Origin: Oscillospiraceae bacterium
Lineage (GTDB): Bacteria; Bacillota; Clostridia; HGM11514
Length of the DNA stretch: 48,708 nt
Assembly: GCA_015068925.1 (NCBI GenBank)
Contig: SVJP01000003.1
Location: 1 to 48,708 of the forward strand
Direction: 5' to 3'
Shown: positions 27,148-39,109 of the stretch, piece by piece
How positions within the stretch are numbered: the stretch's first letter is position 1
Layout: each line of letters opens with the position of its first letter
The notes under the pieces: generated by a model
Databases searched by the model: none
What the model was told of the DNA's origin: nothing
The model's input: the letters and a program-made list of their open reading frames with translations, nothing else
Position numbers and translations under genes: made by a program

Positions 27148-27374
27148 TTTACAAATGCCTTTCATTGTGATATAATTTAAATTGCCAAATCAATTTAAAA
27201 CGTTTTAAATGGGGTATCTATACTCTTTTTTCGCGTACTAAACTTGAGAATTTGTTAAAAATGCAAATTCCATTTAAATTTGTATGGCTTATGCTCTGTT
27301 CAATTTAAATTGGTTTGGCGACTATCGGAGTTTGCGTTTTTGATGCGTCTGCTTCGGTGGGCGTATTTTTTATT
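27148..27374 (+). ncRNA. Structured RNA/attenuator cassette A (promoter, long stem, switch, terminator)
   Basis: TTTACA-17-TATAAT (27148/27171). 18-bp stem 27182-27199 with 27304-27321. AAAAATGCAAATTCC (27257-27271) complementary to GGAGTTTGCGTTTTT (27327-27341). C(TTCG)G-capped terminator 27343-27366 plus T-tract. Confidence 0.7.
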
Positions 27375-27400
27375 AGGAGGAAAAAAAGAAGGGAAATATT

Positions 27401-27673
27401 GTGGATGCATTAGGCAGATTTACCGTTCCTATTAAGTACAGAAAAATCATGAATATCAACCCGGGGGACGAATTGGATGTGGCGTATCAGAATGGAATGT
27501 TATTGGTGAAAAAATTAAGTCAGAGCTGTATTTTTTGTGACAAGGATGAAGAGTTATTCTCTTTTGAAGAACGGATGATTTGTAAAACCTGTTTGGAAAA
27601 ACTAAATGAAAAAAAACAAACAAGAAAGAATAGTGCAAAGGTTTCCATTCGTCGGCATGTAAGGGGACGATAA
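27401..27673 (+). CDS. AbrB/MazE/SpoVT-family regulator, divergent AbrB paralog 1
   Basis: VDALGRFTVPIKYRKIMNI.PGDELDV plus C-terminal CIFC...ICKTC as in clostridial AbrB; start codon uncertain. Confidence 0.85.
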   Translation: MDALGRFTVPIKYRKIMNINPGDELDVAYQNGMLLVKKLSQSCIFCDKDEELFSFEERMICKTCLEKLNEKKQTRKNSAKVSIRRHVRGR

Positions 27674-27717: not shown

Positions 27718-27792
27718 GGCAAAAACCCTTGACAAAACAGAGAAAAAATGGGATAATAGAAGGGATATGAATTTTGTTTCGGAGGATAGATT

Positions 27793-27975
27793 ATGAAGTA
27801 TGCGGCGGCAGGAATTGTACTTTTAGGTGCATTGCTTTCTTATTTGTCGAAATCCTTGTATCGATGGCTGAAAAAGAGTGAGCCTGAGGAAAAAAGTGTG
27901 CTTAAAATTAAATTTGCAGGACTGGGAATTGTGATGGTCGGCGTTGTACTTTTGTTGATATCGGAAGGAAGGTAA
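27793..27975 (+). CDS. Small two-helix membrane protein upstream of valS
   Basis: GGAGG RBS; TTGACA-17-GATAAT promoter at 27729-27757; two hydrophobic segments. Confidence 0.7.
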
Positions 27976-27988
27976 GGAGGAAGTTTCT

Positions 27989-30625
27989 ATGGAACAAAAA
28001 AACCTGGAAAAGGTATATAATCCGAAAGAATTTGAAGAAAAAATCTATGAAATGTGGAGTGAAAACGGGTATTTCGGTGCTGACCCTGTCAGCAAGAAGG
28101 AAGCATTTTCCATTGTAATTCCCCCTCCCAATGTAACAGGTCAGCTTCATATGGGACATGCTCTTAACGTTACCTTGCAGGATATTCTGGTTCGTTATAA
28201 GAGAATGGCGGGGTTTGAGACCTTGTGGGTTCCCGGCTATGACCATGCAGGGATTGCCACCCAGATTAAAGTGGAAGAAGTTCTTCGGAAAGAAGAGGGT
28301 CTGACCCGTTATGATTTGGGAAGAGAAAAGTTTTTGGACCGTGTTTGGGATTGGAAAAATAAATACGGCAGCACCATTGTAAACCAGATTAAGAGAATGG
28401 GTTGCTCTTGTGACTGGAGCAGAGAACGGTTCACCATGGATGAAGGCTGTTCCAAAGCCGTTCGTCGAGTGTTTGTTGATTTATATGAAAAGGGTCTAAT
28501 CTATCAGGGAAGCCGTATCATCAACTGGTGTCCCAATTGTATCACTGCTCTTTCTGATGCGGAAGTAGAATATCAGGAACAGGCAGGTCATTTTTGGCAC
28601 ATTAAATATCCTGTAAAAGACAGTGATGAATATGTAATTTTGGCAACCACCCGTCCTGAAACCTTGCTGGGTGATACTGCAGTTGCAGTTAACCCCAATG
28701 ATGAAAGATATAAGCATTTGGTTGGTAAAACCTTGATTCTGCCCCTTGTTGGAAGAGAAATTCCTCTCATTGCAGATGATTATGTTGATATGGAATTCGG
28801 TACAGGCGTGGTAAAAATCACCCCTGCTCATGACCCTAACGATTTCGAGGTTGGTCTGCGTCATAATTTAGAGCAGATTAAGGTATTAAATGACGATGCC
28901 ACCGTCAATGAACATGGCGGAAAGTACTGCGGACTGGATAGATATGAAGCCAGAAAGCAGATGGTAAAGGATTTGGAAGAACAGGGTCTTTTGGTGGAAG
29001 TGGAAGACCATGCTCACAATGTTGGTCAGTGCTACCGTTGCGGAACCACGGTAGAACCCATGACCTCCAAGCAATGGTTTGTGAAAATGGAACCTCTGGC
29101 AGTAGAGGCGTTGAGAGTGGTAAAGGACGGCACCATTTCCTTTATTCCCGACCGTTTCTCCAAGACTTACTTAAATTGGATGGAAAATGTGCATGACTGG
29201 TGTATTTCCCGTCAGCTTTGGTGGGGACACAGAATCCCTGCATTCTATTGCGATAAGTGCGGTGAAACCACCGTTTCTGAACACGATATTACCACATGCC
29301 CCAAGTGCGGCGGCAATGTAAAGCAGGACGAGGATGTACTGGATACCTGGTTCAGCTCCGCCCTGTGGCCTTTCTCCACCTTGGGTTGGCCTGAAGATAC
29401 GGAAGAATTGAAAAAATTCTATCCCACAAGCGTATTGGTTACCGCTTACGATATTATCTTCTTCTGGGTTGCAAGAATGATTTTCTCCGGTATGGAGCAG
29501 AAAAAGGAAATGCCCTTCAAACATGTATTCATTCACGGTATCGTCCGTGACGAACAGGGCAGAAAGATGAGTAAATCCTTAGGAAACGGCATTGACCCCT
29601 TAAAGGTCATTGATGAATACGGTACTGATGCACTTCGGTTTACTCTGGTAACAGGCAACTCCCCCGGAAATGACATTCGTTTCTCTTGGGACAGAGTGGC
29701 ATCCAGCCGTAACTTTGCCAACAAGATTTGGAATGCATCCCGTTTTGTGCTGATGAACCTGAATGTGGACAGCTGTGATTTGCCCGACGAAAGCTTGTTG
29801 CAAACCGAAGATAAATGGATTTTGAGCCGTCTGAATAAGGTTGCAGCACAGGTAAACGAAAACCTGGATAAATACGAATTGGGTATTGCATCTGCAAACC
29901 TTTACGACTTTATCTGGGATGAATTCTGCGATTGGTACATTGAATTGGTAAAACCCCGTTTGTACGGTGAAGATAAGGATGCCAATGAAAGTGCACAACG
30001 AGTGCTTTGCTATGTGCTTTCCAAAACCTTGTGTCTGCTTCATCCCTTCATGCCCTTCATCACCGAAGAAATTTGGCAATGTCTGCCTCACGGCGAGGAA
30101 GAAAGCATTATGGTTCAGGCATATCCTACCTATTCTGATGCTTTGTCCTTTGAGCAGGAAGAAAATAAGATGGAGCAAATCATGCAGATGATTAAGAGCA
30201 TCCGTAACCTTCGTTCCGAAATGAACGTTCCTCCGTCCCGTAAAGCACAGGTGATGGTGGTAACAGAAGCATCCGATGTGTTTGGTTCTGCTTCCCCCTT
30301 CTTTGAAAAGCTGTGTTCTGCAAGCGGATTGACTGTTTTGGCAGACGAAAGCGGAATCCCCGAGGATACCGTATCTGTTGTCATCCCCGGTGCAAAAGCA
30401 TTCCTGCCCTTGGGCGAATTGGTGGACAAGCAGAAGGAACTGGAACGTCTGGAAAAGGAAAAATCCCGTCTGGAAGATGAAATCAAACGAGTTGACGGCA
30501 AACTGGCAAACGAAAAGTTTGTTTCCAAAGCACCTGCTCACTTGGTAGAACAAGAACGAGAAAAGAAACAAAAATATCAGGAAATGCTGGATGAAATATT
30601 GGCAAGCATTGAAAAGATGAAATAA
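27989..30625 (+). CDS. valS: Valine--tRNA ligase
   Basis: [30 protein letters not shown]-terminal coiled-coil arm. Confidence 0.98.
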
Positions 30626-30745: not shown

Positions 30746-30979
30746 CTACCAATGTTTTTCTGTTAATTTTTTCAAACATTCTCTGCAGACGGCTCGTTCT
30801 TCAAAAAAAAATAAATCCTCTGTGCCGTCACAAAAAACACAACCTTGCCCTGCCTTTTTAATCACCAAAGCACCCTTTTGGCAGGTAACATCCAATTCGT
30901 CTCCGTGATTGATATTCAACATTCTTCTGAACTTGACGGGAATCACAAATCTTCCCAAAGAATCCACTTCGTTTCTCAT
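30746..30979 (-). CDS. AbrB/MazE/SpoVT-family regulator, divergent AbrB paralog 2
   Basis: GGAGGAG RBS, ATG 30979; VDSLGRFVIPVKFRRMLNINHGDELDV...CVFC...VCREC; clearly paralogous to 27401-27673. Confidence 0.85.
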   Translation of the reverse strand: MRNEVDSLGRFVIPVKFRRMLNINHGDELDVTCQKGALVIKKAGQGCVFCDGTEDLFFFEERAVCRECLKKLTEKHW

Positions 30980-30995: not shown

Positions 30996-31228
30996 AATAA
31001 AAAATGCGCCTACCGAAGCAGACGCATAAAAACGCAAACTCCGATAGTCGCGAAACCAATTAAAACAAAAGGGATAATCATGTTACCACATTTGATGGAA
31101 TTTGCATTTTTTCCAACATAAAATATGGTAACAAAAATAAAGCATATTTAATCAAAAATATCCCTTTTTTTGTTTATTTTAAATCAGTTTCGCATAATTA
31201 TTATATCACATTTTTTAAACTTTATCAA
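30996..31228 (-). ncRNA. Structured RNA/attenuator cassette B
   Basis: TTGATA-17-TATAAT (31228/31205). Stem 31193-31178 with 31065-31050, inner stems 31173-31159 with 31076-31065 and 31132-31121 with 31093-31082. Same AAAAATGCAAATTCC / GGAGTTTGCGTTTTT pair and TTCG terminator as cassette A. Confidence 0.7.
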
Positions 31229-38121: not shown

Positions 38122-38233
38122 GGATGTCTTCAGGGCAGGGTGAAATTCCCGATCGGCGGTAAAGTCCGCAAGCGTTTTGCATGATTTGGTGTGATTCCAA
38201 AACCGACAGTATAGTCTGGATGAAAGAAGATGA
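38122..38233 (+). ncRNA. FMN riboswitch (RFN element)
   Basis: TCTTCAGGGCAGGGTGAAATTCCCGATCGGCGGT...CCGACAGTATAGTCTGGATGAAAGAAGA. TTGACA/TATAAT promoter upstream; terminator CACCTGAAT/ATTCAGGTG downstream. Confidence 0.95.
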
Positions 38234-38309
38234 GGAAATTTGCCTTATTGCACCTGAATGACCATTGATTCAGGTGTTTGTTATTGTAAAAAGAAAGGGG
38301 AATTTCATA

Positions 38310-39032: not shown

Positions 39033-39109
<77 letters not shown>

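Follow-up and report, generated by a model that had tools for sequence, protein, structure and literature searches.

Two AbrB-like genes of an Oscillospiraceae bacterium sit behind copies of an undescribed leader RNA of about 200 bases with its own promoter and a probable terminator switch

The question

Why should two AbrB-like genes that face each other across valS each begin directly behind what looks like the same terminator? The question is posed by a stretch of 48,708 nucleotides (nt) of an Oscillospiraceae bacterium ("the window": contig SVJP01000003.1 of assembly GCA_015068925.1, positions 1 to 48,708), in which gene A lies on the forward strand, starting at 27401, and gene B on the reverse strand, starting at 30979. 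Canonical Bacillus abrB is repressed by Spo0A and autoregulated; control by a leader terminator is not, to our knowledge, what has been described for it. A preliminary description of the window had called the two genes "divergent" (they are convergent) and had proposed that leader and AbrB form a selected module with specificity shared between its two copies. The answer offered here is a different one: the gene pair sits behind copies of an undescribed leader RNA of ~200 bases that is equipped with its own promoter and terminator switch; the cassette is quite probably a self-contained unit whose leader acts in cis as a transcription attenuator; and the cassette has the AbrB-like paralogs as a recurrent cargo among others, not as its partner.

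Two cassettes, one layout

Cassette A (27148-27372, +) and cassette B (31228-30998, -) are built alike: a near-consensus promoter, a structured RNA of ~190 nt, an intrinsic terminator and then, within 7-30 nt, the ribosome-binding site (RBS) of an AbrB-like gene. A pattern scan reads the promoter of A (27148-27176, +) as TTTACA, 17 nt, TG-n-TATAAT and that of B (31200-31228, -) as TTGATA, 17 nt, TG-n-TATAAT; each matches at 11/12 and carries the TG. Taken to begin at the first base of its closing stem and to finish with the U-tract, leader RNA A would occupy 27184-27372 (+; ~189 nt; its 5' end is placed by promoter spacing) and leader RNA B 30998-31193 (-; ~196 nt). A covariance model built from 17 copies scores them at 154.3 and 154.7 bits, respectively. 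Both fold far better than chance: RNA A at -53.1 kcal/mol (z-score -4.9) and RNA B at -60.7 kcal/mol (z-score -6.8), with 0/200 shuffles as good in either case.

The resemblance between the two is unevenly distributed. The window holds exactly two occurrences of the 22-nt 3' motif GACTATCGGAGTTTGCGTTTTT, at 27320-27341 (+) and at 31028-31049 (-), where shuffles lead one to expect 0.00, and the 17-nt AAAAATGCAAATTCCAT is identical in A (27257-27273, +) and B (31095-31111, -). Aligned pairwise, the cassettes show ~4 differences over their final ~70 nt and are largely different in the interior, where the closing stem has exchanged a C-G for a G-C pair (GCC...GGC in A, GCG...CGC in B). The preliminary description had already remarked on the near-identical 3' ends and 17-nt apical segment, and on a rod interior rewritten yet still paired; alignment, repeat counts and folds agree with it. 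For annotation, perfect inverted repeats around housekeeping genes in such genomes may be nothing more than a pair of leaders with their conserved 3' ends.

Within A, the closing stem P1 (5' strand 27184-27199, 3' strand 27304-27319) encloses the rod. Near the rod tip lie region 0 (GAATTTG, 27248-27254), whose local partner in the predicted fold and ensemble is the 3' half of segment 1, giving a tip hairpin, and segment 1 itself (AAAAATGCAAATTCC, 27257-27271), the "apical" segment of the preliminary description. Beyond P1 come a linker (GACTATC, 27320-27326), segment 2 (GGAGTTTGCGTTTTT, 27327-27341), which is the switching strand, and the intrinsic terminator (27343-27372: stem 27343-27352/27357-27366, TTCG loop, U-tract 27367-27372), all on the forward strand. 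The counterparts in B, on the reverse strand, are segment 1 at 31097-31111, segment 2 at 31028-31042, the terminator hairpin at 31004-31027 and its U-tract at 30998-31003. A scan for terminator-like hairpins lists 27342-27367 (+) and 31027-31004 (-). The RBS begins straight after the U-tract in both cassettes: AGGAGG at 27375-27380 and GAAGGGA at 27388-27394 in A (+; GTG start at 27401), GGAGGAG at 30991-30985 in B (-; ATG start at 30979). These coordinates bear out the claim that each gene has its RBS directly after a cassette terminator. Transcription of the AbrB-like genes from a start downstream of the terminator would tell against attenuation; the pattern scan lists no promoter-like site between terminator and AbrB start in A or in B.

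A and B are not the only copies in their genome: BLAST finds 4, and the covariance model finds 10, all 10 preceded by the same promoter layout. They come in two forms, long (~190-225 nt) and short (~150-185 nt).

Four helices supported by covariation

Covariation supports four pairings: the closing stem P1, the long-range pairing of segments 1 and 2 (1:2), the pairing of segment 2 with segment 3 (2:3, the antiterminator) and the terminator. Over 106 copies found with the covariance model, all 14 of the 14 base pairs (bp) of P1 have changed on both sides, and 94.8% of the cells are paired. The terminator stem likewise covaries.

The 15-bp 1:2 helix joins the apical segment, an A-run and then ~10 variable nt, to the segment just before the terminator, ~10 variable nt and then a U-run. 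Without recourse to an alignment, the best partner of segment 2 within the rod is the A-run segment in 103 of the 106 copies, at a median near -19 kcal/mol; two of the remaining three are truncated hits, and the third is antisense. The sequences of the two segments vary from copy to copy with complementarity kept (UGUUGACUCC/GGAGUUGACG, CACUGGUUU/AAAUCAGUG, CGCGUAGCUC/GAGCUAUGCG), and the window's own genome alone holds five different 1:2 pairs, among them AUGCAAAUUCC/GGAGUUUGCGU, CACGCUC/GGAGUG(G)UG, GCUUU/AAAGC and AGCCC/GGGCU. In alignment A6, the model behind which did not contain the 1:2 helix, its 15 pairs are 88-93% paired and 9 of them show double-sided changes; the whole structure is 92.3% paired in A6, compared with 78.5 ± 0.4% when shuffled (0/500 reach the observed value) and 33-53% when slid. 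A copy's own segment 2 beats those of other copies by 3.6 kcal/mol (median rank 0.13). Counted in a fixed register, 68.9% of 1:2 cells are paired, versus 62.4 ± 0.8% with permuted partners, a count blurred by the 1-nt bulges of the short type.

In the antiterminator, segment 2 is paired to segment 3, which consists of the terminator's 5' arm plus its loop; the median energy of this helix, -13.2 kcal/mol, lies close to the terminator's -14.3. It covaries as well (for example AUCGGAGUUAUGUGUU/GCGUGUAACUCUGAG): ten pairs are 90-95% paired, seven with double-sided changes, and in an alignment-free test 77% of copies have no more than 10 of 200 shuffles as good. Segment 2 is thus shared by 1:2 and 2:3, and the terminator's 5' arm by 2:3 and the terminator: the pairings are mutually exclusive. 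The local pairing of region 0 with segment 1 has a probability of ~0.8 in 92 long-type copies, with 69% of cells paired over the 106. Two structural marks of an attenuator leader are present here, a stem-loop and U-tract ahead of a start codon and an antiterminator that uses one terminator strand, and the preliminary assignment to the attenuator type is supported: the alternative to the terminator exists and covaries. A conserved leader peptide was considered and rejected; the small open reading frames (ORFs) within the rod are not the same from one copy to the next, and where some copies have an ATG in segment 1, many have ACG.

How the switch might work

The proposed unit comprises a strong sigma-A-type promoter, a leader of ~150-225 nt, an intrinsic terminator and the RBS of the following gene. 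The 5' end of the RNA would form a long covarying rod, closed by the 14-bp P1 and bearing segment 1 near its tip; P1 would be followed by a linker of 5-7 nt and then by segment 2. Segment 2 could pair with segment 1 or with segment 3 (the 5' arm and loop of the terminator), and segment 3 could alternatively pair with segment 4 (the terminator's 3' arm). Segment 1, for its part, may be locked by an upstream mimic of segment 2, namely region 0 in long-type copies and, in short-type ones, the left strand of the upper rod. In the presumptive OFF state the top of the rod would be closed, 1:2 paired and the 3:4 terminator formed, leaving a short RNA of ~190 nt; in the ON state segment 1 would be sequestered, the 2:3 antiterminator would form, and polymerase would read through into the cargo gene. 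By analogy, the logic is that of the classic anti-antiterminator/antiterminator/terminator switch, in the direction that we infer.

Folding calculations are consistent with such a device. In the equilibrium ensemble (computed without pseudoknots for 92 long-type copies) the antiterminator has a probability of ~0.4 and the terminator of ~0.5-0.56, a division by which the modelled platform is bistable, while P1 reaches 0.95-0.99 and the tip hairpin, which takes up part of segment 1, ~0.8. When 1:2 is forced, the terminator forms in 101/103 copies, versus 45/103 when the minimum-energy fold is left unconstrained. The left strand of 64 short-type copies has two alternative partners, segment 1 (median -11.3 kcal/mol, z-score -3.6) and the right strand (-20.2 kcal/mol, z-score -5.9), and the two pairings overlap by 9 nt of the left strand.

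What might set the switch? The input may be a ligand, a protein that reads the rod tip, the RNA itself or, in a kinetic switch, the speed of polymerase, temperature or chaperones. A small-molecule pocket is made less likely by the sensor domain, most of which is conserved as pairing alone. Hfq was tried as a cofactor and rejected: in a cross-tabulation it is present in 77/151 sampled genomes of the class and in only 9/34 of those that carry the RNA. Hfq and the AbrB-like protein are both unlikely cofactors because of their phyletic distribution.

Size, spread and database status of the family

In the window's order, which here amounts to its family (12 genomes), the RNA is present in 9 genomes, one of which (G004; genomes, contigs and loci carry our G, C and L numbers) has 12 copies; in another, G006, 98% complete, the covariance model finds no copy. 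An even sample of the class yields the RNA in 34/151 genomes spread across many families, with up to 14 scored copies per genome; these per-genome counts are floors, because only 16 candidates were scored in each. An exact 18-nt pattern recovers at least 120 loci in a collection of species-representative genomes. Among the loci listed, nearly all belong to metagenome-assembled genomes of gut and rumen Clostridia (Oscillospiraceae, Acutalibacteraceae, Christensenellaceae, Ruminococcaceae etc.), and there are a few chance matches in Bacteroidota and one proteobacterium; the titles include one of isolate type, "Bacterium 1XD8-76". Of the first 100 such loci, ~95 give a model hit that is full-length or cut by a contig end (48.9-163 bits), and 92 a full-length one (91.7-163 bits). 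The plasmid collection searched contains no match to the leader, and the phage collection a single matching record: an unverified faecal bacteriophage scaffold (L286; MT835503.1, 338-531) with a full leader copy at 114.9 bits. An ORF from 575 behind that copy has an NPPF motif, presumably that of an N6-adenine DNA methyltransferase, for which it is typical.

Several of these loci deserve separate mention. Tandem arrays of three and two leader units, respectively, occur at L276 (G004:C6:111018-111681) and L272 (G043:C14); each unit has its own promoter of the TTTACA/TGTGATATAAT type and a different segment 1/segment 2 pair, with one ORF behind the array. In the window's own genome (G000), the end of contig C166 holds copy C together with a third AbrB-like gene, immediately ahead of rpsB (L003, 1355-1813), and copy D comes just after tsf on contig C65 (L004, 1466-1667, -). 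If C166 and C65 adjoin, the rpsB-tsf pair would have a cassette on either side, rather like valS between A and B.

Is the RNA a known one? At gathering thresholds, Rfam 15 finds in the whole window only a flavin mononucleotide (FMN) riboswitch and a tRNA, both elsewhere than the cassettes. A search of cassette A at E ≤10 touches the leader only with chance-level rows of ~15 bits (a microRNA and a snoRNA family, with gathering thresholds of 83 and 46), and nine copies of the own genome searched at E ≤0.01 return one spurious microRNA row (34.7 bits; gathering threshold 195). Judged by the Rfam 15 models, then, the leader belongs neither to the T-boxes nor to another curated cis-regulatory RNA. 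Full-text searches of the literature found neither the leader RNA described nor, for these taxa, any attenuator ahead of AbrB. The motif is absent from those supplementary files of Fremin & Bhatt 2021 (PMC8040213) that were searched; the leader may be among the unnamed candidates of that work, because its supplementary files 7 and 8 lay outside the search. If the reading given here is true, a large and hitherto unlisted class of leader RNA exists in uncultured Clostridia of gut and rumen; about one in five of the sampled genomes have it, often in 10 or more copies.

The FMN riboswitch (109.6 bits) and a tRNA-Arg(ACG), at 38122-38235 and 39033-39109, are the sole Rfam/ARAGORN matches in the window. 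The valS gene (27989-30625) has a promoter-like site, TTGACA-17-GATAAT, at 27729-27757 and, directly upstream, a 60-residue hydrophobic ORF with an RBS (27793-27975); the Rfam 15 scan of the window shows no T-box or other Rfam leader ahead of it.

The genes behind the leader

Genes follow the terminator systematically. A co-oriented ORF with a Shine-Dalgarno (SD) sequence no more than 40 nt from the U-tract is present behind 64/86 assessable pattern-found copies and 64/105 model-found copies; with the start allowed anywhere within ~200 nt, the counts rise to 82/86 and 94/105. The median gap from U-tract to ORF is 25 nt in the first set and 22 nt in the second. What these genes encode is heterogeneous, surface and secreted proteins and AMP-ligases included: 110 downstream products, chosen from 176 ORFs of at least 35 residues (very short ORFs and most artefacts from antisense hits were left out), fall into more than 40 unrelated Pfam families, and about half of the scanned products have no family. 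Cu_amine_oxidN1 (8), BspA LRR_5 (7), MazE/AbrB (7), YpsA SLOG (3) and AMP-binding (3) are joined by zinc ribbons, collagen repeats, lectins, SLH, dockerin, M23 and CHAP hydrolases, Ltp lipoprotein, VWA, HicA, TerB, SHOCT, DUF4236, Band_7_1, GT2 and XRE. AbrB-like genes stand behind 3/86 pattern-found and 5/105 model-found copies, or ~5%.

Two small protein families recur as well. One, of 36-65 residues (M.DYKKLY..LFN...I..L...Q...EE.Y), is found behind leaders in several genomes (L200, L204-L206, L211, L255, L272, L234, L049, L054), at least five times in G140 alone; its tested members have no Pfam or NCBIfam match. The other, a cysteine-rich protein of 68-83 residues (MIIDGPTGIELIPGNGGKDCPGNG...CCDEC...), recurs in G134, G106 and G067 (L180, L183, L230, L235, L226) and is likewise without a Pfam or NCBIfam match.

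If the leader is the attenuator it appears to be, it gates accessory genes: surface proteins of the BspA type and with copper-amine-oxidase domains, lectins, S-layer-homology proteins and cell-wall hydrolases, along with small zinc-ribbon or cysteine-rich proteins, conflict genes of the SLOG, HicA and TerB types, and expanded AbrB-type regulators.

AbrB-like proteins as cargo

Gene A (27401-27673, +; GTG start) encodes 90 residues, an AbrB/MazE N-domain with a four-cysteine C-terminus, and gene B (30746-30979, -) 77 residues plus stop. Their products and that of the third paralog, on contig C166, score 21-27 bits against PF04014, around its 24.7-bit cut-off (relatives reach 29-36 bits), and also match TIGR01439. 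A profile of 11 AbrB-like proteins finds the N-domains of AbrB, Abh and SpoVT (PDB 2k1n, 1z0r, 1yfb, 2fy9, 2ro5) at E values of 4e-11 to 2.5e-9, which places the N-terminal ~45 residues among the AbrB/MazE/SpoVT swapped-hairpin domains. This N-domain is what the proteins share with canonical AbrB, Abh and SpoVT; the C-terminal half appears unlike the multimerisation domain of AbrB and carries four invariant cysteines (CxxC...CxxC), with a weak likeness to the zinc-ribbon protein uS14 (E 1e-4). Because this AbrB-zinc-ribbon family (~80 residues, E about 1e-20) is present in 132/151 sampled genomes, the common AbrB-type regulator of these Clostridia may, to judge by sequence, have a zinc-ribbon-like tail rather than the C-domain of Bacillus.

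How closely are protein and leader associated? All five full-length paralogs of the own genome lie directly behind a copy (two on C37 and one each on C166, C207 and C185), and in the window's family the leader precedes 16/16 assessable paralogs of more than 40% identity. Two of these 16 leaders needed an unfiltered search (57.6 and 27.5 bits), and four further matches, at contig ends, were not judged (on G007:C121, which breaks off 32 nt ahead of the gene, and on G008:C43, G008:C39 and G010:C129). In the congener G007 two AbrB-like genes face each other ~3.2 kb apart on contig C121. AbrB-like genes also occur behind leaders in the distant genomes G067 and G128 and at L047, L097 and L105. The association ends with the close paralogs: three tested members of a conserved group of orthologues at 33-35% identity have no leader copy at E ≤1, and G002 and G004, with their 8-12 copies of the RNA, possess only the distant orthologue, again leaderless. 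The proposal of an RNA-plus-AbrB module thus describes the window's family well and fails as a definition of the unit.

The switching segments of A and B are identical, and those of C and D nearly so (there is a single G-to-A change in the 3' segment, and one base is missing from the apical segment of C). The shared specificity proposed for A and B is borne out to that extent; because of this near-identity, cross-talk among A, B, C and D is conceivable on sequence grounds.

Weighing the readings

Several observations weigh against a cis-acting attenuator of the kind proposed. The alignment from which the antiterminator was counted had been fitted to a model that contains 2:3, so that the alignment-free test is the independent one, and the antiterminator is weak in some copies (at L188, -5.6 kcal/mol and a z-score of -0.2). 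No effector was found. As a nested fold, 1:2 costs a median of 20.8 kcal/mol, since the rod must open; the simple nested alternative was rejected on that energy, and 1:2 must therefore be a pseudoknot or intermolecular. The loop-to-tail pseudoknot that we favour, formed within one molecule, would have to span a rod of ~30-45 bp by way of a 5-7-nt linker, and is sterically tight as modelled. Finally, tandem arrays of 2-3 units with a promoter for every unit, and the copies that have no ORF start within ~200 nt (4/86 and 11/105), fit free-standing small RNA genes equally well. Might the units be just that, acting in trans, with the downstream gene expressed through incidental leakage of the terminator? 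Each does have its own promoter and terminator, and copy D is trailed only by a 9-codon ORF, the gene of a secreted protein coming ~130 nt past the U-tract. An SD sequence and start codon in the same direction within 40 nt of most U-tracts, the lack of a listed promoter-like site between terminator and gene in A and B, and a covarying antiterminator that would be purposeless in a pure small RNA gene all speak against it, and we regard this explanation as distinctly unlikely. The two roles are compatible: the tandem arrays, each unit with its own promoter, suggest that the short terminated RNA may have a role of its own, and it may also act in trans.

A variant of the attenuator would dispense with any dedicated protein or metabolite. 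In this RNA-only "domino" switch, six segments would form an exclusive chain of pairings (left:right, left:1, 1:2, 2:3, 3:4) that carries the fold of the rod tip to the termination decision, and 1:2 would serve as a copy-specific address. Since the geometry of 1:2 inside a single molecule is awkward, the helix may instead join two molecules: terminated RNAs that have accumulated, or dimers in antiparallel arrangement, would capture nascent leaders of the same address and force termination, so that A, B, C and D, sharing one address, would make up one cross-regulating group and the other six copies insulated channels. This is speculative and rather unlikely; were it true, a network of dosage and feedback control at the RNA level would extend over dozens of accessory surface genes and AbrB-type regulators. 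That RNA and AbrB-like protein constitute a dedicated autoregulatory module, the protein binding its own leader or promoter and the paralogs cross-regulating one another, is suggested by the 16/16 paralogs of the window's family and by the recurrences in distant genomes. It is very unlikely nonetheless: other genes follow ~95% of copies, the RNA-rich G002 and G004 make do with a leaderless orthologue, and the protein family, present in 132/151 genomes, does not track an RNA present in 34/151. On those phyletic grounds the protein was rejected as a dedicated partner. Least credible of all is a dispersed DNA repeat without RNA function, a palindrome like those of repetitive extragenic palindromic (REP) elements or miniature inverted-repeat transposable elements, or a pair of inverted operator half-sites. 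The element is multicopy and rich in inverted repeats, and copies flank housekeeping genes (valS in the window; rpsB and tsf on C166 and C65). Against this, copies within a single genome have diverged strongly yet with compensation, a promoter and a U-tract terminator are conserved in position, and the G-U wobbles make sense on one strand only (one 1:2 pair is U-G in 35 copies, U-A in 22 and C-G in 15); under the covariance model the sense strand reaches 100-160 bits, the antisense strand only ~30, and mobile-element collections yield no plasmid match and the single phage match. REP and REPIN sequences are highly similar palindromic units of ~20-40 nt, typically with a RAYT transposase in the genome; membership was rejected for units of 150-225 nt that have a promoter in addition and have diverged with compensatory and G-U changes.

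Comparison with known systems

The cis-acting attenuator has familiar relatives. In the E. coli trp leader the 1:2, 2:3 and 3:4 helices compete, and the B. subtilis pyr leaders act with PyrR. As in those leaders, mutually exclusive helices follow one another in a chain whose last member is an intrinsic terminator, placed immediately ahead of the regulated gene, and an upstream segment that captures the 5' strand of the antiterminator would promote termination. Unlike them, the leader described here has no leader peptide, no PyrR-type binding loop and no match among Rfam 15 leaders; its predicted anti-antiterminator, of 15 bp, bridges more than 55 nt and a closed stem; and the whole unit, promoter included, is repeated before unrelated genes. 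In the ZTP, fluoride, preQ1-II/III and SAM-II riboswitches the 3' strand of a pseudoknot overlaps the expression platform, and known riboswitch pseudoknots are of 4-7 bp, set around a conserved ligand pocket. The likeness would lie in a distal loop or subdomain pairing with a 3' tail beside the terminator and so deciding termination; the difference, in a helix of ~15 bp whose sequence changes from copy to copy, and in a sensor that is conserved mostly as pairing.

Attenuation by countertranscripts of the rep genes of plasmids pT181, pIP501 and pAMbeta1 depends on a separate antisense RNA that captures the nascent leader. There, as here, a long complementary segment would make the terminator form in preference to the antiterminator, and the sequence of the pairing would set specificity; here the complementary segment is encoded upstream in the same sense transcript. 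At lambda PR'-tR' a 194-nt terminated "6S" transcript is made and read-through occurs only with Q, while put (HK022) and EAR (B. subtilis eps) are RNA antiterminators in which the structured leader RNA is itself functional. The predicted terminated RNA of ~190 nt from a constitutive promoter before regulated genes recalls the first, and a structured leader that would itself carry function recalls the others. All three are instances of processive antitermination with no competing antiterminator hairpin, unlike the local, covarying antiterminator found here. What sets the present leader apart is the combination of a 15-bp, copy-specific loop-to-tail pairing, a portable unit that bears its own promoter, its copy number and its heterogeneous cargo. 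If the reading holds, RNA biologists would have in it an orphan switch that covaries well and whose loop and tail pair over an unusual length, and those who work with anaerobes a natural, portable promoter-attenuator part.

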